Shown here: positions 2,571 to 64,000 of the stretch, piece after piece
How the letters are laid out: each line of letters starts with the position of its first letter
Position numbering within the stretch: the stretch's first letter is position 1
Source: Alphaproteobacteria bacterium
GTDB lineage: Bacteria > Pseudomonadota > Alphaproteobacteria > Rs-D84
Length of the DNA stretch: 64,000 bases
NCBI GenBank assembly: GCA_009783145.1
Contig: WRHR01000005.1
Coordinates: 194-64,193, forward strand
Reading direction: 5' to 3'
The notes under the pieces: model-generated
What the model saw: the letters and a program-made list of their open reading frames with translations, nothing else
The model's database searches: none
What the model was told of the DNA's origin: nothing
Made by a program: the position numbers and the translations under genes

Positions 2571-2592
2571 AAAGAAACCTCTCTTCAAAAAA

Positions 2593-3183
2593 TGTCAGAC
2601 GGGCCGTAAGCCGGATTCTGTTCTATGGCATAATTAATCTGTCGCGGCGGATTACTCCACCGGATCAAGCCCTCTACCCGCCCCCAACGCCAGGCGCGCT
2701 GGGGACCATGTGGAGAAAATATTGCGCGATTTGCGGCAGGGGATTTGAAGCAAGGACGAGGATTTTCGCGCAGACCGTATATTATACGGGCAAGCGGAAA
2801 TCCGAAGTTATTGATTCAAATACGCGCCGTCGCTTTGCGATGCAGCTAAAATCACCCATCGCTTTGTCAGATTGGCTCGATGTATAATATACATTTTCGC
2901 CAATCTTTCGCGCGCTGTGCGATTTTATCTCGCACAAATCGCGCAATATTTTCTCCACATGGCCCCTGGGGGCCTATTTGAAGTTGCACCACATAGAGAT
3001 TGCCCGTTTCACCCGCCTTCGCCAAGGCTACGGCGGGCAAGCCCGTCATGCCTTATTGAAGACGACTCCGTCTCTGTTGCTCTGATCGTCGGGTCGCCCC
3101 GCCGGGCCGTTAGCCCGTATGCTGCCTGGTGGTGTCCGGACTTTCCTCGCCATTTCTGGCGCTATGCCTCGCCCGTCTGACCG
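2593..3183 (-). ncRNA. rnpB: RNase P RNA (bacterial type A core) with large insertion
   Basis: Minus strand contains P4 5' strand GAGGAAAGTCCGGAC (about 3139-3153), P4 3' strand ACAGAATCCGGCTTA (about 2608-2622), P1 pairing GTCAGACGGGC/GCCCGTCTGAC (3171-3181 with 2594-2604), GCAACAGAGA, GGGTGAAAC, CAAATAGG and GGGTAGAGGGC blocks in canonical order. Confidence 0.85.
2706..2962. repeat. 257-nt insertion in rnpB bounded by 28-bp perfect inverted repeat
   Basis: 2706-2733 CCATGTGGAGAAAATATTGCGCGATTTG is the exact reverse complement of 2935-2962; interior holds AT-core palindromes CCGTATATTATACGG and ATGTATAATATACAT. Confidence 0.75.
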
Positions 3184-3235
3184 TTATAAAATACAGCAAA
3201 TTTTCCAAAAATCAATTGATTTTTTCCGCAATAAT

Positions 3236-4516
3236 ATGCACTATGCGTTTGTGTCATTAATTGCCCCAATCTTGAACGAATCCCAACTGCGCGCGTTCGC
3301 GGAGATTGAAAACAGCAACCGCAATATCCTGATTCTGGGGCAAGCCGGAACCGGCAAATCAACCTTTGTGAATTACCTTAAATCGGCCAGTAAAAAGCGT
3401 ATCATCTGCGCCTGCCCAACGGCCGTGTCCGCGCTGAATATCGGCGGGCAGACAATCCATTCCTTGTTCCAAATCCAGCCGCGCGACTTTGTCATGCCGG
3501 ATTTGTTAAAGCTGAAATCTCGCCCGCGAAACATCCTGAATGCCGCGGACTTGCTGATAATCGACGAGGTCTCGATGGTGTCGCCCGACATTCTGGACGC
3601 TATGGATATCCTTAGCCGCTGGGCGAGGAAAAATAACTTGCCCTTTGGCGGGCTGCAGGTCGTCGCAATCGGCGACTTGTTCCAATTGCCGCCTGTGATC
3701 ACCCGCGATGCCGAACAGTTCTATCTGGAATCGTACGGCATGCCGAACGCTTATTTCTTCGACGCGCACGCATACAAGCGCGCTGACTTTAATCGCGCCG
3801 ATTTCGACTTCGTCTATCGTCAAAGCGACGACAATCTGCTGCAGCATTTATTTGATTTAAGAACAGGCGCGGATATCGCGGAGGCGCTGAATTATTTCAA
3901 CAATTTAAAAATCGCGGATGCCGCAAAGCGTGAAAATGCCGTCATTATCACGCCTTTCCGCGCGGTCGCGGATAGAATAAATGCCGACCGCTTGGCGCAA
4001 ATTCCGGCGCCCGAGATAACTTACAAGGGCGAACTGACCGGAAACTTCAACGAAAAAGACGTTCCCGCGCCTATGAACCTGACCTTGAAAATCGGGGCGT
4101 TGGTCGTCTTCGTGAAAAACGGAAACGACTGGCACAACGGCAGCATGGGCATAGTTCGCGAATTGTCGCACAACTTGATAAAGGTCCAACTGCTGGGCGG
4201 CGAACTTGTCGATGTAAAGCCCGACAAATGGGAGAAAATGGAATACGAGCGCGATGAGAAAGACAAGCTGGTTGAAAACGAGGTCGGCAGCTATAAACAA
4301 TTCCCGCTGGCGCTGGGTTATGCGATGACCATTCACAAAGCGCAGGGAAAAACTTTGGATGCAGTCGTTGTGGATATCTCGCGCGGGGCGTTCGCGCACG
4401 GACAGACTTATGTTGCGCTGTCTCGCACGCGGCGCGCGGATGATATGCATATCGCCGCCCCGCTGCGCGGGCGAGATATAATTTTCGATAGACGCGTTTT
4501 GGAATTTGTGGGATAA
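3236..4516 (+). CDS. Pif1/RecD-like superfamily 1 DNA helicase
   Basis: Walker A GQAGTGKST, Walker B IIDEVSMV, GDLFQLPPV, C-terminal TIHKAQGKT...YVALSRTR; ORF-track start 3119 overlaps rnpB so ATG 3236 chosen. Confidence 0.8.
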   Translation: MHYAFVSLIAPILNESQLRAFAEIENSNRNILILGQAGTGKSTFVNYLKSASKKRIICACPTAVSALNIGGQTIHSLFQIQPRDFVMPDLLKLKSRPRNILNAADLLIIDEVSMVSPDILDAMDILSRWARKNNLPFGGLQVVAIGDLFQLPPVITRDAEQFYLESYGMPNAYFFDAHAYKRADFNRADFDFVYRQSDDNLLQHLFDLRTGADIAEALNYFNNLKIADAAKRENAVIITPFRAVADRINADRLAQIPAPEITYKGELTGNFNEKDVPAPMNLTLKIGALVVFVKNGNDWHNGSMGIVRELSHNLIKVQLLGGELVDVKPDKWEKMEYERDEKDKLVENEVGSYKQFPLALGYAMTIHKAQGKTLDAVVVDISRGAFAHGQTYVALSRTRRADDMHIAAPLRGRDIIFDRRVLEFVG

Positions 4517-8778: not shown

Positions 8779-8823
8779 AGCAAGATATAATATAGAGTAT
8801 TTCTGGGAATAGTCAATAGTCAT

Positions 8824-8850
8824 TAAAAAAACCCGCTTGCGCGGGAATTT
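8824..8850 (-). terminator. rho-independent terminator
   Basis: Minus strand AAATTCCCGCGCAAGCGGGTTTTTTT directly after stop of 8851-9102. Confidence 0.6.
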
Positions 8851-9102: not shown

Positions 9103-9140
9103 CTTCTCATTCCTTTGTTATTGTTATACAATTTATAAGT

Positions 9141-9718
9141 GCCGGATTCTGGTGCCAGGCTCCGGCGGGCCCCGCATAAGCTAAGCGGGCGTTGCGACAA
9201 TTGCCGCGCGCGCCCTTGTGCCCTTAGGCAGCCAATGCAAGGCGAACATTGCTGTTCGCAGCGATTCTATCGCCATTCAGTTTTTTTCAGCCTTTTTCGG
9301 GAGCAACCCCGGACGCACTCTTTATCTTTCAGCCATTGTCGAGCCTGGTTCACCCCCATGCGCGGCTGCGCCGCGAGAGTGGCGCAAATGCTTCGCATTT
9401 GCTAGAGTAAAGATTCTTCGGCTGCGCCGAAAAATCAGAGTATTCGCTCGCTTCGCTCGCAGAGTAGGAGAGTAAGAGAGTAAAAGAGTAAAAGAGCATC
9501 TAAAACTCTACTACTCTCTTACTCTGCAAATGCGAAGCATTTGCGCTACTCTGCCGGCGAAGCCGGCGTCACTCTGCGCGCGAAGCGCGCGCTACTCTCA
9601 TCCACCATTTCCTATTGCGCCGCAGGCGCAATAGGAAATGGTGGAGGTGCCGGGTACCGCCCCCGGGTCCAAAAAGCCTATTGCATAAAGCATTCAGCAT
9701 CGTCTTCCCCGAAGGGAC
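9141..9718 (-). ncRNA. ssrA: two-piece (circularly permuted) tmRNA gene
   Basis: Acceptor piece ends ...GGACCCGGGGGCGGTACCCGGCACCTCCACCA (CCA at 9639). Coding piece starts GGGGGTGAACCAGGCTCGAC at 9357. GGGGGTG pairs 7/7 with CACCTCC including G3:U70. Tag frame GCT GCG AAC AGC AAT GTT CGC CTT GCA TTG GCT GCC TAA = AANSNVRLALAA. Confidence 0.8.
9358..9638. repeat. ~280-nt tmRNA intervening segment built of AGAGTANN octamers and GCGAAGC-centred mini-hairpins
   Basis: AGAGTAGG AGAGTAAG AGAGTAAA AGAGTAAA on one side and TACTCT units on the other, interspersed with GCAAATGC-GAAG-CATTTGC, GCCGGCGAAGCCGGC, GCGCGCGAAGCGCGCGC, CGCTCGCTTCGCTCGC. Confidence 0.75.
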
Positions 9719-9724
9719 TTACTA

Positions 9725-9752
9725 ATTATAAGGGAAATTTATGAAAAATCAA
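9725..9752 (-). promoter_or_regulatory. sigma70-like promoter TTGATT-16-TATAAT for ssrA
   Basis: Minus strand -35 at 9752-9747, -10 at 9730-9725; predicted start gives an acceptor piece of about 80 nt. Confidence 0.45.
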
Positions 9753-10051
9753 GCGCCTTGCTTTTTCGCCGCAGCCAATGCCGCGCGCAAGGATTTCTCG
9801 GCCAAAACCCGGATTTTCGGCGCAAATGCCCGCATATTCATCGCGTCTGCCACAGAATTCGCGAAAAGCTCTGCTATATAATTAACCTGAGTCGGCGCAA
9901 TCACGAAGACTTCACTGGAAATCTGTTCGGGCCGCAACTTCAATGCGCCCCCCTTCGCTGAAGCTATGGGGGGCAGGCCCGGGGTCGGCCTGTCCGCCGG
10001 AGCCTTGGCGTAGGCGGATTTTTTTATGATGTCTTCTATTGAATTTTCCAT
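9749..10051 (-). CDS. hypothetical protein containing two copies of the GC-hairpin insert
   Basis: 100-aa ORF divergent from secA; residues YAKAPADRPTPGLPPIASAKGG are encoded by hairpin copies at 9948-9973 and 9993-10018. Confidence 0.45.
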   Translation of the reverse strand: MENSIEDIIKKSAYAKAPADRPTPGLPPIASAKGGALKLRPEQISSEVFVIAPTQVNYIAELFANSVADAMNMRAFAPKIRVLAEKSLRAALAAAKKQGA

Positions 10052-10149: not shown

Positions 10150-12774
10150 ATGATTCAAAGAGCTATTAGTAGAGTTTTAAGGAAAGTTTTGGGTTCCGCA
10201 AACGACCGCGTTGTGCGTTCTTATGACAAAATCGTATCCATAATCAATGATTTAGAGCCGAAATACCACGCAATGTCCGACGAACAGCTGCGCGCGGTAA
10301 CCACCCAATTGCGCCAGAGACTTAGCGACGGGGCCAGCGAGAGAGACATTCGTCCCGACGCTTTCGCCGCCGTGCGCGAGGCCTCGATCCGAACGCTGGG
10401 GATGCGGCACTTCAATGTCCAGCTTATCGGCGGCATGGTCTTGAACAACGGCCAGATTACCGAAATGAAGACCGGCGAAGGAAAAACCCTGGTCGCGACG
10501 CTGGCGCTATATTTGAAAGCCCTGCACGGAAAAGGAGCGCACCTGATTACGGTCAACGACTATCTTGCGTCGCGCGACGCCAATTGGATGGGTGCTATTT
10601 ACAAGTTCCTGGGTTTAACCGTCGGCATTATCCAGCACGATATGACGGACGAGGAGCGCCGCGAGGCATACGCCTGCGACATCACATACGTGACTAATTC
10701 CGAGCTGGGATTCGACTATCTGCGCGACAATATGAAATTCAGCAAGGACCAGCAGGTCTTGCGCCCGTTCTTTTACGGCATCGTCGACGAGGTCGACAGT
10801 ATTCTGATCGACGAGGCGCGCACTCCTCTCATCATTTCCGGACCCGCCGAAGACACCAGCGAGCTTTATAACGCCGTCGACGCGATCGTTGCGAAGTTCT
10901 CGCCCGACGATTATAAAAAAGATGAAAAAGACCGCCATGTCACCCTTACCGACTGCGGCACGGATACGGCAACCGCTATGCTGGCCGAGGCGGGCCTGCT
11001 GACCGGCACAAACCTTTACGCGCCGGAAAACGCCATGCTGGTGATGCATATCCAGCAAGCATTATTGGCTCATCACCTGTTCAAGAAGGAAGTGAATTAC
11101 GTCGTCCGCGGCGGCGAAGTTCTTATCGTCGACGAATTCACCGGGCGCGTTATGACCGGGCGCCGCTTCAGCAAAGGCTTGCACCAGGCGCTGGAGGCCA
11201 AGGAGCATGTAAAGATTCAGCCGGAAAATCAGACCGTATCCAGCATTTCCTATCAGAACCTGTTCCGCCTGTATCCGAAATTGGCGGGTATGACCGGCAC
11301 CGCTATGACCGAAGCCGTGGAATTCGAAGAGATTTACAAGCTGCGCGTCGTATCCATTCCCACTAACCGCCCCGTCGTTCGCGTCGATCATCACGATGAG
11401 ATCTATCGAAACAAGCAGGAAAAATTCGACGCTATAATCGAACAGCTGCGTGATTGCCAGACGCGCAAACAGCCCGTCTTGGTCGGCACGGTATCTATCG
11501 AAAAATCGGAAGAGCTGGCCGAGATTGTTGAGAAACGACTCAAAATCAAGCCCGCCGTCCTTAACGCTAAGCATCACGAATCCGAAGCGAGAATCGTTGC
11601 GCAGGCCGGCGTCCCGGGCCGCATTACCATTGCCACGAACATGGCCGGCCGCGGAACCGATATCAAGCTGGGGGGAAATGCCGAGGAGCTGATTGCGGCG
11701 CTGGACGCGGATGCGCCGGACTTTGAAAAAAAGAAAAAAGAAATTTATGAAAAAATCGAAGCCGACAAAAAAACCGTTCTGGATGCCGGCGGCCTGTACG
11801 TAATCGGAACCGAACGGCACGAGTCCCGCCGCATCGACAACCAGTTGCGCGGACGATCCGGACGCCAGGGCGATCCCGGCGATTCAAAATTCTTCCTTGC
11901 GCTGGACGACGACTTGATGCGCATCTTCGGCGCGGCGCGCCTGGACGGAATGCTGATGACCTTGGGCCTTAAACCGGGAGAAGCCATAAAGCATCCTTGG
12001 ATCACCAAAGCCTTGGAAAAAGCGCAAAAGCGCGTTGAAGCCCGCTATTTCGAATCCCGCAAAGAACTGCTGAAATACGACAATGTTATGAACGACCAAA
12101 GAAACGTGGTGTACAAGCAGCGCGATGATTTGATGACCAGCGATGACTTGACAGGGTTGGCGAAAGAACTGCTGGCGGACGTCGTGGAAAATATTGCGGA
12201 GATGAACATTCCGGAAAAAACGCGACCGGAAGATTGGAACATCGCCGGCATTCATGATGCTATGCAGCGCGTGTTCGGAATGGATATCACGGACCTTGAT
12301 TCTTGGAAGACCGACGAATCCATCACGGAGCAAAAAGCCTATGAATCCCTGCTGCGCCTTGCGCAGAACCGCTATGACCACCAGGCAGAGAGATACGGGC
12401 CCGAGCTGATGCAGACCGCGCAGAAACAAATGATGCTGTCGGCGCTGGACAATACCTGGCGCAAGCACTTACAAGCTATGGACATGCTGCAATCGGGCAT
12501 CGGGCTGCGCGGGTACGCTCAGAAAAATCCGCTTTACGAATATAAGCGCGAAGCGTTCGAATTATTCCGCGGGATGATGAATAACTTCAAGTCAATGTCG
12601 ATGGCATATCTGTGCCGGATGGAATTGTCGCGCGACGATATCGATGCGACCAAGCGCGAGCATGAAGAGCGCGACGCGACGCTGAACACCGCCCCCGGCA
12701 CCACGAACCGCAATGCGCTGTGCCCCTGCGGCAGCGGCCTTAAATACAAGCATTGCTGCGGGAAGCTGAAGTAA
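10150..12774 (+). CDS. secA: preprotein translocase ATPase SecA
   Basis: 874 aa; MKTGEGKT, VDEVDSILIDEARTPLIISG, TNMAGRGTDI, C-terminal zinc motif CPCGSGLKYKHCCG. Confidence 0.97.
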   Translation: MIQRAISRVLRKVLGSANDRVVRSYDKIVSIINDLEPKYHAMSDEQLRAVTTQLRQRLSDGASERDIRPDAFAAVREASIRTLGMRHFNVQLIGGMVLNNGQITEMKTGEGKTLVATLALYLKALHGKGAHLITVNDYLASRDANWMGAIYKFLGLTVGIIQHDMTDEERREAYACDITYVTNSELGFDYLRDNMKFSKDQQVLRPFFYGIVDEVDSILIDEARTPLIISGPAEDTSELYNAVDAIVAKFSPDDYKKDEKDRHVTLTDCGTDTATAMLAEAGLLTGTNLYAPENAMLVMHIQQALLAHHLFKKEVNYVVRGGEVLIVDEFTGRVMTGRRFSKGLHQALEAKEHVKIQPENQTVSSISYQNLFRLYPKLAGMTGTAMTEAVEFEEIYKLRVVSIPTNRPVVRVDHHDEIYRNKQEKFDAIIEQLRDCQTRKQPVLVGTVSIEKSEELAEIVEKRLKIKPAVLNAKHHESEARIVAQAGVPGRITIATNMAGRGTDIKLGGNAEELIAALDADAPDFEKKKKEIYEKIEADKKTVLDAGGLYVIGTERHESRRIDNQLRGRSGRQGDPGDSKFFLALDDDLMRIFGAARLDGMLMTLGLKPGEAIKHPWITKALEKAQKRVEARYFESRKELLKYDNVMNDQRNVVYKQRDDLMTSDDLTGLAKELLADVVENIAEMNIPEKTRPEDWNIAGIHDAMQRVFGMDITDLDSWKTDESITEQKAYESLLRLAQNRYDHQAERYGPELMQTAQKQMMLSALDNTWRKHLQAMDMLQSGIGLRGYAQKNPLYEYKREAFELFRGMMNNFKSMSMAYLCRMELSRDDIDATKREHEERDATLNTAPGTTNRNALCPCGSGLKYKHCCGKLK

Positions 12775-12800
12775 AAAAATCCGGCGCTGCCGGATTTTTA
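12775..12800 (+). terminator. rho-independent terminator after secA
   Basis: AAAAATCCGGCGCTGCCGGATTTTT. Confidence 0.65.
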
Positions 12801-12920
12801 AATTAGCGATTAGCAATTATCAATTAGCGGTTAAACGCAACATAAACATTGTCCATTATAATGGACATCGTTATTCACACACTCTAAATCGCTAATCGCT
12901 AATTGATAATTGCTAATTTA
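12801..12920. repeat. heptamer-arm hairpin element H1 with TGTCCATTATAATGGACA core
   Basis: Left arm ATTAGCG ATTAGCA ATTATCA ATTAGCG (12802-12829), core palindrome 12850-12867, right arm CGCTAAT CGCTAAT TGATAAT TGCTAAT (12889-12916); right arm runs into dnaE stop codon. Confidence 0.8.
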
Positions 12921-20690: not shown

Positions 20691-21968
20691 TTACGCAAGC
20701 AGATATTCTTTATCCGCGCCAACGATTTTCAAATCGCGCACCGTTCGCGAAGGAATCGGCGCTCCGCTTACCTTTACGGGGATGTCGTCGGGCGTGCGGC
20801 CTATGTTTTTTTCTTCCATCAAAACGCTGGTTGTTTTTCCTATTTGAGACTTCATGAATTCGCGTCGGTTTTGCTGCGCAAGTTCGTTTACAAGCTTTAC
20901 GCGGCGCTTTGATTCCGCGCGGTCCACCTGGTCCGGCATAGTCGCCGCCAAGGTGCCGGGCCTGGGCGAGAACGGAAACGCATGTATATGTATCGGCTTC
21001 AGCTCTTTTATAAGCGCGCAGGTTTCTTCAAACAACTCTGGCGACTCCCCCGGAAATCCGCAGATGATGTCCCAGGAAAAGGTAGGAGGTAGGAGGTAGG
21101 AGGTTGGAGGTGTCATAATTTTCCGCACAATTTCCGCATTATGCCGTCTGCCCATTGCAGAGAGTATTTTATCACTGCCGCTTTGCATTGAAAGATGCAA
21201 GTGCGCCAGCATTCGGGGGTCTCGCGACATCAGCTCGATAATCTTCGCGCATTCGGGGCTGGCCGGATCAACCGAGGACAAGCGCAGGCGCTGCAACTGG
21301 GGGATGTCGTCCAAAAGCCGCCGACACAGGTCGCCAAGCCCCCCGTCCGCGCGATATCCCGCTATATCAACGCCTGTCAAAACAACTTCGGTAAAGCCGT
21401 TCAGGGCCGCGGCGCGGGTTTCGGCCAGAATCCGCTCGTACGGGAAAGAGACGTTTTTCCCACGCAATTTGCTGACTATGCAATACGCGCAGCTGTGATT
21501 GCAGCCGTTCTGGATTTGGATAAAGGCTTTGGATAGCGTTGAGTGTTGAATGTTGAGCGTTGAATTATAAATTTCAGACTTAACTTCACATTTATACGCA
21601 TCAATGTTGAATTTATCCTTATTCGCCACCACTGCCGCGACGCCGGGGATTTTGGCATAGTCTTCGGGAGCGCGGGTCGCGGCGCAGCCCGTGATAAACA
21701 ATGGTACGCCCGGGTGCTCGCTCGGCTTCGCCTGCGCGCATCCTCCTAGTTGCTCGAACTTCGCTACGCTCGTTCTCGCATACTCGGATTCGCGAGCCAG
21801 CTTTCGGATTGCTTGACGGGATTGGCGCTCGGCCTCGGCCGTCACCGCGCAAGTGTTCACTATTATAGCATTTTTGACACCGGCGGCGATAAGCATAGAT
21901 TTGATTTTCTCCGCCTCGACCATATTCAGCCGGCAACCAAACGACAAAAATTTTACTTGATTTTCCAT
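20691..21968 (-). CDS. mtaB: MiaB/MtaB-family radical SAM methylthiotransferase
   Basis: N-terminal FGCRLN...NTCAVT, radical SAM CNHSCAYC, DIICGFPGE, C-terminal TRAM-like region; ATG 21968 chosen because the longer ORF overlaps rpoZ. Confidence 0.8.
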   Translation of the reverse strand: MENQVKFLSFGCRLNMVEAEKIKSMLIAAGVKNAIIVNTCAVTAEAERQSRQAIRKLARESEYARTSVAKFEQLGGCAQAKPSEHPGVPLFITGCAATRAPEDYAKIPGVAAVVANKDKFNIDAYKCEVKSEIYNSTLNIQHSTLSKAFIQIQNGCNHSCAYCIVSKLRGKNVSFPYERILAETRAAALNGFTEVVLTGVDIAGYRADGGLGDLCRRLLDDIPQLQRLRLSSVDPASPECAKIIELMSRDPRMLAHLHLSMQSGSDKILSAMGRRHNAEIVRKIMTPPTSYLLPPTFSWDIICGFPGESPELFEETCALIKELKPIHIHAFPFSPRPGTLAATMPDQVDRAESKRRVKLVNELAQQNRREFMKSQIGKTTSVLMEEKNIGRTPDDIPVKVSGAPIPSRTVRDLKIVGADKEYLLA

Positions 21969-24329: not shown

Positions 24330-24399
24330 CGGAATTCCTTTTTTAAGTATTTTATGAGAAAAGAACAGATAATGCAGTAAGAAAAAAATCGGCCAATAT

Positions 24400-24623
24400 A
24401 ATGACTAATGACTAATGACTAATGACTAATGACTAATGACATGTCAACTGTCCGCGGTTGTCCAATATATTAGACAACCGATAACGGCCTTTGTTATATA
24501 GTCTTTTTCATCTTTGCTATTCTAGTATACTAGAATAGCAAAGATGAAACAAAATGTCCTTTATAAAGGACAAGCATTAGTATCCATTATCTATTATCCA
24601 TTGGTCATTAGTCATTAGTCATT
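24400..24623. repeat. heptamer-arm hairpin element H3 (AATGACT units) with three internal palindromes
   Basis: AATGACT x6 at 24400-24440; GGTCATTAGTCATTAGTCATT at 24603-24623; internal palindromes about 24467-24488, 24508-24547 (40 nt perfect) and 24555-24572 TGTCCTTTATAAAGGACA. Confidence 0.8.
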
Positions 24624-24624
24624 A

Positions 24625-29505: not shown

Positions 29506-29573
29506 ATTTACGATTTGCGATTTACGATTTGTTGGGAGTGAAATCGTAAATCGCAAATCGTAAATCGTAAATT
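29506..29573. repeat. heptamer-arm hairpin H4 (ATTTRCG units), no AT-rich core
   Basis: ATTTACG ATTTGCG ATTTACG ATTTG / loop TTGGGAGTG / AAATCGT AAATCGC AAATCGT AAATCGT; begins right after the smpB stop. Confidence 0.75.
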
Positions 29574-42155: not shown

Positions 42156-42286
42156 AATGACTAATGACCAATGACTAATTAATGGGTTCGCTTTCGCTCA
42201 CAAGTTCATCGACTGGATTGCTTCGGCTTCGCCTCGCAATGACAATTTAGCGTGGATTGGTAATTAGTCATTGGTCATTAGTCATT
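42156..42286. repeat. heptamer-arm hairpin H5 (AATGACT/AATGACC units) carrying a family D half-element as core
   Basis: 42156-42181 is the exact reverse complement of 42261-42286 (26 bp); interior 42213-42246 equals the family D arm. Confidence 0.8.
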
Positions 42287-42311
42287 AAAAAACGCCCTTT
42301 CGGGCGTTTTT
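42287..42311 (-). terminator. rho-independent terminator after rlpA
   Basis: AAAAAACGCCCTTTCGGGCGTTTTT. Confidence 0.6.
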
Positions 42312-43232: not shown

Positions 43233-43304
43233 AAAAGTAGAAAGTAGCAAGTAGAAAGTAGAAAATATATACCCCCTACTTCCTACTTTCTACTTGCTAC
43301 TTTT
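43233..43304. repeat. heptamer-arm hairpin H6 (GTAGAAA/GTAGCAA units)
   Basis: AGTAGCAAGTAGAAAGTAG in left arm pairs with CTACTTTCTACTTGCTACT in right arm; right arm covers the last four codons (KSSK) and stop of murJ. Confidence 0.75.
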
Positions 43305-47281: not shown

Positions 47282-49210
47282 TTATTTCATCACAAAATGC
47301 ACGTGGATTGACGGGCTTTTGCGATCGCCCAGCATCGGACGGATGACCTTTTTTACCGCCGCATCAACGGATTGCCGCAATGCATCCTGCGATTTTCGCT
47401 CCCCTTTGCCCAGGTCCTTTATCAGATTCGTGATTTCGATTTGGATTTGGCGCTTCGCGTAGCCCGTAGCGTCGGATTCGAACAATCCCGCGCTGGAGAC
47501 CTCGGGCACGTCTTTCAGGTATCCCCTTTTATCCACCGACAAGGTCACGAACACCGCTCCTTCGGTCGAAAGCTTTTTCCGGGTTTTCAGCACCGGATCG
47601 TCGCCGCTGCGCTCCGTTTCGCCTTCCATCACTATAAACCCGGCCTTGAAGCTTTCCGTCACATACGGCTCTTCGCCCTTGCGCAGCGCCACGATGTCGC
47701 CGTTATGCACCAGCATCATCGACTTGGCCCCGCCGCGCTCCATCGCCATCTTCGCGTTCAACATTTCCGTAACGTATTCGCCATGCATAGGGATGATTAC
47801 CTGCGGATGGACTATGTCATAGAACTTTTCATATTCCGGCCGGCCCGCGTGTCCGTTCGCGTGCAATTTCGCCGTGTCGAAAATGGTCTTCGTAGTAATG
47901 CCCATTTTCGCCAGCTTGTTATACAAGAACGATACCGCCGATTCCCGGCTGGGGATTATAATCGCGCTGAACACCACGGTATCCGTCGGCATCAGCTTCA
48001 GCTCTTTTACATGTCCGCGGCAAAGGCGCGTCAGCATGGCGTATTTCTCGCCCTGCGAGCCAGTCAGGTATATCGCCTGCTTTTCGGCCGGCAAGTCCTT
48101 GACCTCGCTGTGCAGCATTATATCTTTTGGCACATAGCCCAGCTCTATCCCCAGCTCGCGAAATTCCGGCAAGCCCACGAACGGCACGGGTTTGGGGTTG
48201 CTGCGCTCCTTTATGCAAGGCACGCGGCCGGCGGCCAATGCCGCCTTTGTGAATCCGTCCATGCGCGCCATACTGCGCGAGTATCCGGTGACCAGCACCC
48301 GCCCTGGAGCATTCTTCATTATATCTTCCAGAGTCTCGGCGACCTCCAGCTCCGTCGTCTGGACGGGTTGGCGCGTGATTTCCGTCGAATCATTGACGCA
48401 AGCCAGCAAGTCCGGATCGCTGCCTATCTCGCGCAATCTGGCGTAATTCGTCGGGCTTTCGATCGGAATCCCGTCGTTAAAGGTCCAGTCGCCGGTATGC
48501 AGTATTTTTCCCGCGCCGGTTTTTATCACCAGCATCTGCGCTTCGGGTATCGAATGGCTGACGTGAAAGTTTTCTATATCGAACGGGCCGACTTTGAACT
48601 GGGAGCCTTCGTGGTCTATGACAACGAAGTCGCTTGGCTTGTAATCGATTTCCAGCCCGTCGAATGTCCGCTTCATGAATTTTGCCACGAACCGAGTGCA
48701 ATAAATCGGGCACTTGAACTTGGGCCAGATATATTTAAGCGCGCCGACATGGTCTTCGTGTCCATGAGTGATAACTATTCCGACTATATCTTTCTTGCGC
48801 TTTTCCAAGTACTCCGTGTCGCTGTACTTCACGTCCTCGCCGCCGACATCCGCGTCCAAGAATCCCATTCCGCAATCGACGATCAGGTACTTGCCCTTGT
48901 ACTTATAGACGTACATATTCTGGCCGACGTGTTCCAGCCCGCCCATAGCGAAGAAGTAAATCACATCGTCGGGGTCGTCGGATTTTTGATTTACGATTTG
49001 CGATTTACGATTTGATTCCCCGGTTTTAGAGTTTTTAGTTTTTCCTTTGGCGATAGCAGCATCGGCGGCGGCAATCGCCACACCCTTGCCGTCATCCGAA
49101 AAAGGATCCGTAATATCCACATCGTCTTCCGTGTCATAATCGCCGTTATGCAAGAACGGCAAGTTGGCTATTTTGTCGTTCTCGTTTTTCTGTTTTTTAA
49201 GTTTTACCAT
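47282..49210 (-). CDS. rnj: ribonuclease J with ~85-aa N-terminal extension
   Basis: Metallo-beta-lactamase HGHEDHVGAL, beta-CASP region, RNase J C-terminal domain. Confidence 0.9.
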   Translation of the reverse strand: MVKLKKQKNENDKIANLPFLHNGDYDTEDDVDITDPFSDDGKGVAIAAADAAIAKGKTKNSKTGESNRKSQIVNQKSDDPDDVIYFFAMGGLEHVGQNMYVYKYKGKYLIVDCGMGFLDADVGGEDVKYSDTEYLEKRKKDIVGIVITHGHEDHVGALKYIWPKFKCPIYCTRFVAKFMKRTFDGLEIDYKPSDFVVIDHEGSQFKVGPFDIENFHVSHSIPEAQMLVIKTGAGKILHTGDWTFNDGIPIESPTNYARLREIGSDPDLLACVNDSTEITRQPVQTTELEVAETLEDIMKNAPGRVLVTGYSRSMARMDGFTKAALAAGRVPCIKERSNPKPVPFVGLPEFRELGIELGYVPKDIMLHSEVKDLPAEKQAIYLTGSQGEKYAMLTRLCRGHVKELKLMPTDTVVFSAIIIPSRESAVSFLYNKLAKMGITTKTIFDTAKLHANGHAGRPEYEKFYDIVHPQVIIPMHGEYVTEMLNAKMAMERGGAKSMMLVHNGDIVALRKGEEPYVTESFKAGFIVMEGETERSGDDPVLKTRKKLSTEGAVFVTLSVDKRGYLKDVPEVSSAGLFESDATGYAKRQIQIEITNLIKDLGKGERKSQDALRQSVDAAVKKVIRPMLGDRKSPSIHVHFVMK

Positions 49211-51195: not shown

Positions 51196-51440
51196 CAAGT
51201 AGCAAGTAGAAAGTAGGAAGTAGGAGGTAGGAGGTAGGAAGTAGGAAGTAGGAGGTAGGAAGTAGGAAGTAGGAGGTAGGAGGTAGGAGGTAGGAGGTAT
51301 AAAAGGGCCGATAGTAATCTTTACCATACTAGTATGATAAGTATAAAATGCTTTGTTCGTTATATTCGTTATAATGGACATCATATTTATAACCTCCTAC
51401 TTCCTACTTCCTACCTCCTACTTCCTACTTTCTACTTCCT
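51196..51440. repeat. heptamer-arm hairpin H7 (GTAGGAA/GTAGGAG units), largest copy
   Basis: About 15 tandem GTAGNAR units at 51196-51300; complementary CCTCCTAC/TTCCTAC units at 51392-51440; interior has CATACTAGTATG palindrome (51325-51336) and core half-site GTTATAATGGACA (51368-51380). Confidence 0.8.
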
Positions 51441-51463
51441 ATCTTTTATGCTATAATTCAACT

Positions 51464-51949
51464 ATGAAGCCTGGATTGATGTTTCCCATTCTCGCCATTA
51501 TCGCGATTATTGTCGCGTCCAGTTTCGGGCTGCATATTTTCCCCACCGCGCCGATTCACAATCTCCCCGATTCGGCCCTTAACATCGCCCTGTTCGTCTG
51601 CCCGGAGGCGAACGAGACCTTTGACCTGATCGCGCAACAGCTATCTTATATCCAGGGCTCGCTGACTATCGTTTTCTTCTTCGTTTTCATGATATGGATC
51701 GCGATGCTGGGCTGGGCGCTGTATCAGAACCTGCTGCAGGATAAGTTTGTGGAGAAAAACTGGCAAAGCATTATGTTTCTGGGGAAAACTCTGTTCTGGA
51801 TAACGATAATCATCACGCTGCTGATGCACAGTCCGAACCACTTTCGGCGTGTGAATCTGCGCGGGGCGACCGGAGATTTCGTACTGTGCGAATCCAATAA
51901 TCCCGCATCCCGTCCGGTGCGCGCCGAGGCGGTATCCATAGCGCCTTAA
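51464..51949 (+). CDS. membrane protein
   Basis: Start moved to MKPGLMFPILAIIAIIV because upstream codons are translated heptamer repeats; three hydrophobic segments. Confidence 0.5.
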   Translation: MKPGLMFPILAIIAIIVASSFGLHIFPTAPIHNLPDSALNIALFVCPEANETFDLIAQQLSYIQGSLTIVFFFVFMIWIAMLGWALYQNLLQDKFVEKNWQSIMFLGKTLFWITIIITLLMHSPNHFRRVNLRGATGDFVLCESNNPASRPVRAEAVSIAP

Positions 51950-55374: not shown

Positions 55375-55492
55375 TTCCCCTCCTGTGGAGGGGTGGATGC
55401 GAACGAAGTGAGCAGACGGGGTGGTTTGTTTAATGTTCATAGATTACAAGAACCACCCCGCCCCTTCGGGGCACCCCTCCACAGGAGGGGAA
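55375..55492. repeat. palindromic repeat family C, copy 1
   Basis: TTCCCCTCCTGTGGAGGGGTG ... AACCACCCCGCCCCTTCGGGGCACCCCTCCACAGGAGGGGAA; termini are inverted repeats. Confidence 0.75.
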
Positions 55493-55516
55493 CCGCGACT
55501 CCGCCGATATAGTTTA

Positions 55517-59670: not shown

Positions 59671-59816
59671 GGCGGGGCGGTGTTCCCCTCCTGTGGAGGA
59701 GTGGCGCATCAGCGCCGGGGTAGTTCGGGTAATGTTCGTATATTGTTATAAATGCTCGCGCATTACACAAACCACCCCGCCCCTTCGGGGCACCCCTCCA
59801 CAGGAGGGGAACACCT
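59671..59816. repeat. palindromic repeat family C, copy 2
   Basis: GTGTTCCCCTCCTGTGGAGGAGTGG ... AACCACCCCGCCCCTTCGGGGCACCCCTCCACAGGAGGGGAACAC; 42-nt right block identical to copy 1. Confidence 0.75.
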
Positions 59817-59831
59817 CATCGCGAATTATGG

Positions 59832-63757: not shown

Positions 63758-63759
<2 letters not shown>
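63571..63759 (+). CDS. small acidic secreted protein
   Basis: GGAGAGGAG RBS; signal peptide MKKLALIGIFALLPFVASA; Glu/Val-rich mature part. Confidence 0.5.

Positions 63760-64000
<241 letters not shown>

Follow-up and report, generated by a model that had tools for sequence, protein, structure and literature searches.

Hairpin elements built from inverted heptanucleotide arrays, and an associated 20-nt palindrome, in a 64-kb contig segment of an uncultured alphaproteobacterium

Hairpin elements along the window

The 64-kb stretch of contig WRHR01000005.1 analyzed here (the window) carries seven hairpin elements, the stems of which are tandem heptanucleotide (7-nt) arrays that face each other in inverted orientation. 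It also has a branched hairpin of octamer units in the gene for transfer-messenger RNA (tmRNA), three solo arrays, and a short palindrome (the core) that lies inside three of the hairpins and recurs in other genomes. SecA encoded in the window shares 80% identity with its counterpart in Candidatus Enterousia and 83-87% with proteins from metagenome-assembled genomes (MAGs). Enterousia is placed in the uncultured order Rs-D84, which comprises gut alphaproteobacteria with genomes of ~1 Mb (PMC12306168), and the host is probably an uncultured gut alphaproteobacterium of this order with a reduced genome. The features, with elements that are paralogues (A) or share an arm family (B and C) bearing the same letter, are as follows.

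8808-8822: solo array, (AATAGTC) x 2, directly beside a terminator at 8825-8845
9360-9630, minus strand: branched hairpin of 272 nt, inserted in the excised tmRNA spacer; AGAGTANN octamer stem units and GC-rich side hairpins with CUUCG loops; no core
12799-12920: element A1; left arm 12799-12832 (ATTAGCG-type units, x 4.5), core 12850-12867, right arm 12887-12920, spacers between
21080-21111, minus strand: solo array, (AGGTAGG) x 4.6, within a MiaB-like coding sequence; the unit is that of element C2
24399-24624: element B1; left arm 24399-24440, a perfect (TAATGAC) x 6; right arm 24581-24624, three good and three degenerate units
29506-29573: element D; (ATTTACG/ATTTGCG) arms of 25 nt at 100% complementarity, 10-nt loop, no core
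42156-42287: element B2; arm family of B1, with AATGACT AATGACC AATGACT mirrored exactly; 26-nt arms, 100% complementary
43233-43304: element C1; (AAGTAG-N) arms, 9-nt loop, no core; between murJ and rlpA
48988-49013, minus strand: solo heptamer array within the RNase J coding sequence, identical over 25 nt to an arm of element D
51196-51441: element C2; arm family of C1; left arm ~15 units, right arm 7 units; in a divergent intergenic region
63758-63877: element A2, paralogue of A1; arms 63758-63790 and 63846-63877 of AATTAAC units, core 63809-63826

Tandem Repeats Finder (TRF) places period-7 arrays on both sides of each of the seven elements at the coordinates above (12801-12920 for A1), and a repeat finder pairs the arms as inverted repeats of 25-71 nt with 82-100% complementarity. 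A purpose-written detector returned six inverted period-7 pairs in the window and none in each of 20 Markov shuffles, so the arms are complementary beyond what shuffled sequence would produce. With the same detector, there were no inverted pairs at periods 5, 8, 9, or 10 and a single one at period 6; the seven found at period 4 came from 463 low-stringency arrays, which we take as noise. Period 7 outnumbers every other period in the window (17 arrays with a TRF score of at least 40 per 64 kb), and the arrays show the features by which tandem heptanucleotide repeats are recognized, namely at least three head-to-tail copies and mostly intergenic positions. All loci fold far more stably than dinucleotide shuffles, both as DNA and as RNA, with z-scores of -6.5 to -14.3.

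As the source is a metagenome, it is important to consider whether chimeric or collapsed repeats could have been introduced during assembly or amplification, and some Logan contigs do break within arrays. However, over the elements, independent ENA, Logan, and NCBI assemblies of several samples show 99.94-100% identity (element D, for example, is identical in the independent assembly L118), and the elements are therefore not assembly artefacts. There is also an orthologous element in another species (see below), and the architecture is repeated in many unrelated assemblies. An artefact is thus extremely improbable.

The initial annotation, which was made from the letters alone, had reported eight intergenic elements of this kind. 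All eight coordinates bear the features described and the unit sequences were listed correctly; seven are inverted heptamer arms in intergenic positions, but the eighth (9358-9638) lies inside the spacer of the permuted tmRNA gene. No known RNA family in Rfam corresponds to the elements, the only window matches at gathering score being RNase P, tmRNA, and tRNAs. Sub-threshold Rfam matches, obtained at permissive E-values, were generic hairpins far under the cut-off and were set aside. We also discarded a phage or plasmid origin, given that there was no BLAST match in phage or plasmid collections and a single core match in IMG/VR.

The elements sit tightly against genes and their terminators. 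A1 has the secA terminator (12773-12799) on one side and the dnaE stop codon (12918-12920) on the other, and the T-run of a terminator lies directly at the start of A1, of B1, and of the solo array at 8808. B1 also abuts the terminator of the L25 gene (24624-24659), and D occupies the smpB-lemA spacer from the stop codon through the ribosome-binding site. B2 interrupts the T-run of the rlpA terminator, which reads GTTTTTT-element-TTTTTC versus GTTTTTTATTT in the related contig L238. Frequently, a neighboring gene takes its last codons and its stop codon from the outer units. For example, the final residues and stop codon of murJ are encoded by outer units of C1, and A2, which sits between convergent genes, supplies the stop codon of the right-hand gene from its outer unit.

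The interiors of the longer elements are themselves composed of small palindromes. In B1 there are three, at 24458-24477 (TTGTCCAATATATTAGACAA), at 24509-24546 (the TCTAGTATACTAGA family), and the core at 24555-24572. C2 has a palindrome at 51323-51338 and a half-site of the core at 51372-51380. B2 has no core, and instead contains a unit at 42215-42245 on the minus strand (TTGTCATTGCGAGG...GCAATCC) that is similar to repetitive extragenic palindromic (REP) sequences. This unit has a TGTC tag, a stem that starts with AT, and a CCA tail (TTGTCATTGCGAGG...GCAATCCA). Its head, TGTCATT, is similar to the AGTCATT arm unit, and it is found several times downstream of rlpA in another contig (L241:4400-4560). 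To the right of C2, the apparent ATG start of the adjoining gene is at ~51463-51467, with a TATAAT only ~7 nt upstream (51445-51470), an arrangement that suggests a leaderless or near-leaderless transcript. The listed open reading frame (ORF) start at 51353 falls within C2 and is probably spurious.

Two of the solo arrays are in coding sequences. The array at 48988-49013 is translated in the variable, K-rich N-terminal linker of RNase J, where a G variant avoids an in-frame stop. The MiaB-like protein with the array at 21080-21111 has ~6-7 more residues than its counterpart in L121 (~21 nt, three AGGTAGG units). The third solo array, at 8808-8822, looks like a remnant or a seed of a B-type arm, judging from its unit.

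Arms and the core palindrome

Reading each arm unit by unit toward the center shows that, within an element, both arms have the same variant units in the same order, at mirrored positions. This implies that the arms are inverted duplicates of an array that was already heterogeneous. In A2, for example, the variant AGATAAC is the third unit of both arms (for this element, the repeat finder reports 60-nt arms that are 82% complementary). Left and right arms match exactly in A2 and B2 and differ by one extra unit in A1, C1, and D. The left arm of C2 has grown via a 21-nt super-unit to ~15 units versus seven on the right, and in B1 the perfect six-unit left run faces a partly degenerate right arm. 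Read from the sequence, such whole-unit differences are the signature of slippage. Slippage followed by fold-back copying had been put forward initially as a way to build arms de novo. The whole-unit differences, the perfect run, and the super-unit expansion are in line with the first step, and the mirrored variants, together with a same-position change in both arms of an orthologous element (see below), are in line with the second. Slippage in 7-nt steps can be seen beyond the elements too: in the three-unit expansion of the MiaB-like gene, in the RNase J linker array, and in L238, which has (AATTGAT)3.6 where L239 and L240 have a single AATTGAT.

Some arms are clearly related to one another. 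B1 and B2 have a stretch of 18-19 nt in common, including the AATGACC variant; C1 and C2 have 23 nt in common, and D and the RNase J array 25 nt. A1 and A2 agree in their entire 120-nt layout (18 nt separate the core from 4.5 units on the left, and 19 nt from 4.5 units on the right), have a variant as the third unit, and are the sole pair that aligns throughout. Other genomes have the same or closely similar units at sites that are not orthologous: L236 and L168 have ATTTACG-type units, L220 has TAGTCAT, and L186 has a variant of the latter with one substitution. Given these shared, variant-bearing segments and the recurrence of units in other genomes, copying does occur, and the initial statement that the architecture is not what copy-paste propagation produces is not supported.

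The accompanying statement that arms are unrelated between copies is largely right. The window has no fewer than five different A/T-rich units, and among 37 elements from the window and related loci we counted 33 canonical units, with pairwise distances near those of random 7-mers. It fails within the window, where three locus pairs share segments and A1 and A2 are paralogous. The near-random distances led us to reject shared ancestry of all units. Derivation of the heptamer unit from the 7-nt stem of the core was rejected as well, because only the degenerate inner units at 24581-24601 are similar to it, and these are on the wrong side. Interiors are unrelated even among members of the same arm family, and arms of unrelated sequence enclose the core. 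The elements are thus mosaics of separable modules.

A serious rival to copying is a purely local origin, in which slippage amplifies a 7-mer that lies beside a terminator or small palindrome, and fold-back synthesis copies it to the opposite side, with no transposition. This would explain the diversity of units (33 classes in 37 elements), the microsatellite in L238 that was born in place from a single-copy AATTGAT, and the in-frame heptamer expansions in coding sequences, which are hard to obtain by transposition. It is also consistent with the absence of a transposase gene from the 64 kb and of a target-site duplication at the sites compared, and in relatives murJ is followed by a sequence (AAAAAAGTT, GAAAGTT) similar to the AAAGTAG unit that the window has at this place. 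However, a local origin does not account for 18-25-nt stretches with the same rare variant unit at different loci, for the 120-nt layout common to A1 and A2, or for the same units at non-orthologous sites in other genomes. Nor does it account for the AGGTAGG unit of the MiaB-like gene, which is that of C2, 30 kb away. Overall, we regard it as a possible but unlikely explanation.

The core was first noticed as an 18-mer, TGTCCWTTATAAWGGACA, at 12850, 24555, and 63809, three occurrences against none expected by chance (no match in 100 shuffles, even at two mismatches). The half-site that had been reported in C2 is also present. The core is longer than was initially thought, by 2 nt: 150 unique copies define a perfect 20-nt palindrome, TTGTCCWTTATAAWGGACAA (TTGTCC...GGACAA), with sharp edges, and beyond 20 nt complementarity is near the permutation background. 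An earlier impression of a longer covarying stem, gained from 29 copies, was abandoned, because at 150 copies the signal beyond ±1 was only slightly above permutation. Symmetric variants of the core recur as subfamilies (TGTCTATTATAATAGACA, nine times; TGTCCAATATATTGGACA; TGTCTAATATATTAGACA; and TGTCTACTATAGTAGACA).

A scan of species-representative genomes recovered scattered single matches to the core, as well as termite-gut alphaproteobacterial MAGs with multiple matches, in which the core is again within inverted heptamer arms, built of other units. A metagenome scan with the 20-mer returned mainly termite-gut contigs, with 22 further inverted heptamer pairs, eight of which have the core inside. 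Outside such armed elements, the core mostly has no arms. It should be seen as an independent, widespread palindrome that occurs with or without arms, and not as a component tied to them, as it had been described.

With regard to gene context, the core was found between convergent genes in 33 cases, tandem genes in 38, and divergent genes in 15, and it favors gene 3' ends. A simple promoter or operator was rejected because convergent contexts are over-represented and divergent ones depleted, although in L205 the core precedes a gene with promoter-like spacing (TTGTCC-17 nt-TATAAT, as a -35-like element). Flanking runs of A on the left and T on the right occur in a minority of the 150 copies, including a textbook bidirectional-terminator-like case in L112, and two of the window cores pass a loose terminator scan with only three G-C pairs. 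We also rejected an uptake-sequence function (DNA uptake sequence or uptake signal sequence, DUS/USS), as solo half-sites are not enriched (two in the window, 0.57 expected), and an integron attC site (an imperfect palindrome of 57-141 nt), as the core has 20 nt and, by inspection, no GTTRRRY. In Hm464_bin176 loci there are three solo half-sites versus 15 full palindromes. GC-rich palindromes similar to the dispersed ~120-130-nt repeat of the window (see below) occur in this bin alongside the core.

In several termite-gut contigs, the core tightly brackets single accessory genes in a cassette-like arrangement (L171:1700-3031, L198:1813-2880, L205:930-1857, L168:2274-3060, L143:2224-2998, and L172:18-746). 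The bracketed genes encode an HI1420-type antitoxin, a Zeta toxin, Nmad3, an AAA kinase-like protein, a GDSL lipase, and a serine hydrolase, and the core-flanked antitoxin-like gene was found in three contigs. Taken together, the core is probably a sequence-specific protein-binding site or a weak bidirectional terminator hairpin, both of these being putative roles.

An identical 18-mer, TGTCCTTTATAAAGGACA, is frequent in MAGs of Saccharibacteria and other Patescibacteria (e.g., L005, L007, L023, L034, L046, and L090). There it adjoins DnaA-box-like TTATCCACA motifs and extra GTAAAGGACA half-sites, and from this setting it looks like an origin-region motif.

Orthologous sites and the origin of the elements

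The heptamer load is patchy among lineages, as indicated by the density of period-7 arrays per 100 kb, which is 26.6 in the window, 38-89 in some termite contigs, and 2.7 in the relatives with SecA identities of 80-87%. Related termite-gut contigs have the same architecture with ~30 other unit sequences. The G+C content of the window is 51%, versus 38-47% in the closest relatives by SecA and RlpA (L121, L122, and L238-L240), a wide gap in composition for near neighbors, and one that coincides with its high heptamer load.

An orthologous element is found in the termite-gut contig L167, which has the same flanking genes as A2 (flank identity of 72-76%), with the element at L167:1126-1280. The orthologue has the same layout, including the core, and the position of the variant unit is retained. 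Its units are ACTAACA and GCTAACA where those of the window are ATTAACA and GATAACA; that is, one unit position has changed in all ~7 comparable units, in both arms. The chance that independent substitutions would all fall at the same unit position is ~(1/7)^6. As read from these two sequences, the differences are a concerted change. This could be due to homogenization within and between arms; a hypermutable position is less likely. Concerted change would explain how arms can be unrelated among copies and yet self-complementary within each.

Four orthologous sites are empty in relatives, in line with a lineage-specific gain of elements: secA-dnaE, murJ-rlpA, rlpA-era, and the site upstream of the tRNA-synt_2c gene. 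The secA-dnaE spacer of L122 is 27 nt with no element, the murJ-rlpA site in relatives is ~50 nt without one, and the site of C2 is 74-81 nt.

These comparisons bear on the possibility that the hairpins are maintained because their structure is selected. Under this explanation, the stem-loops would act as 3'-untranslated-region (3'-UTR) stabilizers, RNase III sites, terminators, insulators that separate convergent genes, or arrays of sites for a heptamer-binding protein (e.g., one with a cold-shock domain), and selection would act on the pairing. In its favor, the folds are very stable on both strands, the core is biased to gene 3' ends, and the layout of one element is retained at an orthologous site despite deep divergence. 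The window encodes RNase III and a cold-shock-domain protein, and CspB has been reported as a heptamer-repeat binder (discussed in PMC4679880). By inspection, most units also contain a stop triplet, so that all three frames are closed within 21 nt. However, close relatives have no element at four orthologous sites, and the positions are heterogeneous (convergent, tandem, and divergent intergenic regions, an operon spacer, coding sequences, and loops of RNA genes). Moreover, arms can be very unequal (15 vs. seven units, and six vs. three), and GC-rich terminators already flank the elements. We consider selection for structure unlikely.

Our preferred explanation, to which we assign a probability of roughly one-half, is that the elements are foldback-type, non-coding mosaic repeats that spread by copying, grow by slippage in 7-nt steps, and undergo arm-to-arm templating, and that they are likely selfish or neutral. 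Each element would have a stem of two inverted tandem heptanucleotide arrays and a tip with small palindromes, among which TTGTCCWTTATAAWGGACAA is the most frequent. Whole elements or arm segments would be copied to new A/T-rich sites just past terminators or stop codons, or into dispensable loops of stable-RNA genes. The arms then lengthen and shorten in 7-nt steps via replication slippage, as the whole-unit differences show. Occasionally, intrastrand template switching across the hairpin would copy one arm onto the other. We infer this step from the mirrored variants and the concerted change in one orthologue, and it would amount to quasi-palindrome correction by intrastrand template switching. 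As a result, the arms of different copies would drift to unrelated units and stay self-complementary. The core would remain constant as a separate, sequence-specific module at gene boundaries, mostly at 3' ends. Such elements would be tolerated at positions where a long stem-loop is harmless.

Several points weigh against spread by copying with arm-to-arm templating. A consistent target-site duplication is absent from the four filled/empty comparisons (there is a possible T-run repeat only at 42156), and the 64 kb encodes no transposase, REP-associated tyrosine transposase (RAYT), or reverse transcriptase, so that copying would be without an agent there. Unrelated interiors in members of one arm family call for extra events such as nested insertion or replacement. 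The concerted change is seen in one orthologous pair, for which parallel mutation at a hypermutable (e.g., methylated) position is the alternative. A single strain is on record and the flanking proteins are all singleton clusters; thus, no unit-number polymorphism is observable. Finally, the core is not the main terminator in the window, where GC-rich terminators adjoin the elements.

A more radical possibility, which we consider improbable, is a dedicated hairpin-templated process, restricted to certain Rs-D84 lineages, that adds symmetric 7-nt steps around a palindrome and is in this sense self-extending. The 20-nt palindrome would then be its recognition or nucleation site, and would also mark the boundary, or the recombination site, of accessory cassettes with one gene each. 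If true, this would be a new bacterial mechanism of de novo repeat genesis.

Contrary to the initial view that the architecture matches no described family, inverted heptamer pairs are known from Xanthomonas, heptamer arrays from cyanobacteria and Beggiatoaceae, and foldback arms from transposons (PMC4692102, PMC4679880, and PMC4079207, respectively). According to the Xanthomonas study (Rehm et al. 2015, PMC4692102), detailed literature on heptamer repeats was scarce as of 2015. The study describes nearby intergenic arrays of GGGAATC heptamers on opposite strands, with stem-loop or cruciform potential and 70-75 pairs per genome; array length varies among species and the singular or paired type is usually kept. 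The likeness is that same-unit arrays lie close together on opposite strands (here, six to seven pairs with 82-100% complementarity). However, Xanthomonas has one G-rich unit genome-wide, with G-quadruplex potential, whereas here there are at least five unrelated A/T-rich units in 64 kb and ~30 across relatives. Also distinct are the conserved palindrome, often at the tip, and the variant units mirrored between arms.

Cyanobacteria reportedly have several heptamer units per genome (the STRR repeats and small dispersed repeats, attributed to work by Mazel in 1990, Vioque in 1997, and Elhai in 2008), including arrays that lie within the gene for RNase P RNA. In these organisms, tandem heptamer arrays reportedly contain very small palindromic repeats. 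In our case the phylum and the units are different, and the insertion in the RNase P gene (see below) is not itself a heptamer array. More generally, in most bacterial genomes the long simple-sequence repeats are reported to be heptamers more often than any other kind; they are intergenic and attributed to polymerase slippage (survey summarized in PMC4679880). TAACTGA arrays occur in both Beggiatoaceae and cyanobacteria; those of Beggiatoaceae are mostly direct and upstream of start codons, with a single inverted case reported (PMC4679880).

Eukaryotic foldback elements (FB, Galileo, and Tetris) are kilobase-sized, with 8-10 bp target-site duplications and Mutator- or P-type transposases (PMC4079207, PMC3573991). 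The window elements are like them in having inverted arms of tandem sub-repeats, unequal arm lengths, a variable middle, and a modular makeup, but unlike them in lacking a target-site duplication at the compared sites and a transposase in the window. Measured against miniature transposable elements with inverted repeats (MITEs), inverted terminal arms are present (25-71 nt), with neither a fixed-length target-site duplication in the four filled/empty comparisons nor one full-length consensus. REP sequences and bacterial interspersed mosaic elements (BIMEs), GTAG/CGTC-tagged repeats, and Rickettsia palindromic elements are palindromic mosaics that are extragenic, sometimes intragenic, and biased to 3' ends; the CGTC class is common in alphaproteobacteria and has no dedicated transposase (PMC3733652, PMC3116915). 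The window elements are likewise mosaics of short palindromes, and the TGTC-tagged, CCA-tailed unit of B2 (42215-42245) resembles the CGTC class (PMC3733652). However, the 20-nt core, as a perfect palindrome, bears neither a GTAG/CGTC tag nor a tail, and REP families are without tandem-heptamer stems. Inverted heptamer arrays were already known; what appears to be new is that units of many unrelated sequences, variants mirrored between arms, a conserved palindrome at the tip, and a concerted change of units occur together.

The sister genomes amount to a natural experiment, with a tenfold difference in heptamer load, filled and empty orthologous sites, and one orthologous element that has changed in concert. 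The origin and concerted evolution of hairpin-forming tandem repeats are thus directly testable. In addition, a 20-nt palindrome with sharp edges has been delineated, which recurs at the boundaries of genes in contigs from relatives within, or near, a little-known gut order. For annotation, it is important to note that the elements break short-read assemblies and generate spurious small ORFs.

Stable-RNA genes and other repeats

The tmRNA gene is in two pieces (permuted), at 9138-9756 on the minus strand, and measures 619 nt versus 347 nt in L122. The whole of this difference is the 272-nt hairpin block, which is absent from L122, L123, and L124 and has a fold z-score of -14.3. The block follows the same building principle as the heptamer elements with different (8-nt) units. 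There is also a hairpin immediately behind the CCA end, and it base-pairs with the 3' end of the acceptor.

The RNase P RNA gene (2591-3180, minus strand) is 590 nt long versus 284 nt in L122, with an extra ~277 nt at 2691-2967. This insertion has 32-nt inverted arms (2702-2733 and 2935-2966) around a 203-nt interior, which is 78.5% identical to L226:11446-11650 and 73.5% identical to L136:4941-5144. The copies in L226 and L136 are just upstream of genes for small secreted proteins, and their ~33-nt inverted arms mostly differ, column by column, from those of the window. The consensus fold has 111 pairs, 20 of them with compensatory changes, and no Rfam match. This pattern makes the insertion a candidate that may be a mobile structured RNA element. 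Stable-RNA genes of a probably reduced genome (tmRNA and RNase P) thus tolerate insertions of several hundred nucleotides. A PIF1-like helicase gene (3119-4516) adjoins the RNase P gene, and it is also present in L121 and L122. At 658-1293, there is a gene for a T5orf172/MUG113-domain protein.

Lastly, a dispersed palindromic repeat of ~120-130 nt has two copies in the window, at 55375-55494 and 59682-59812. Its arms, with a CCCCTCCACAGGAGGGG motif, are at 59672-59703 and 59791-59822 in the second copy, and the repeat matches a termite-gut MAG contig (L067:1917-2022) at 72-77% identity.

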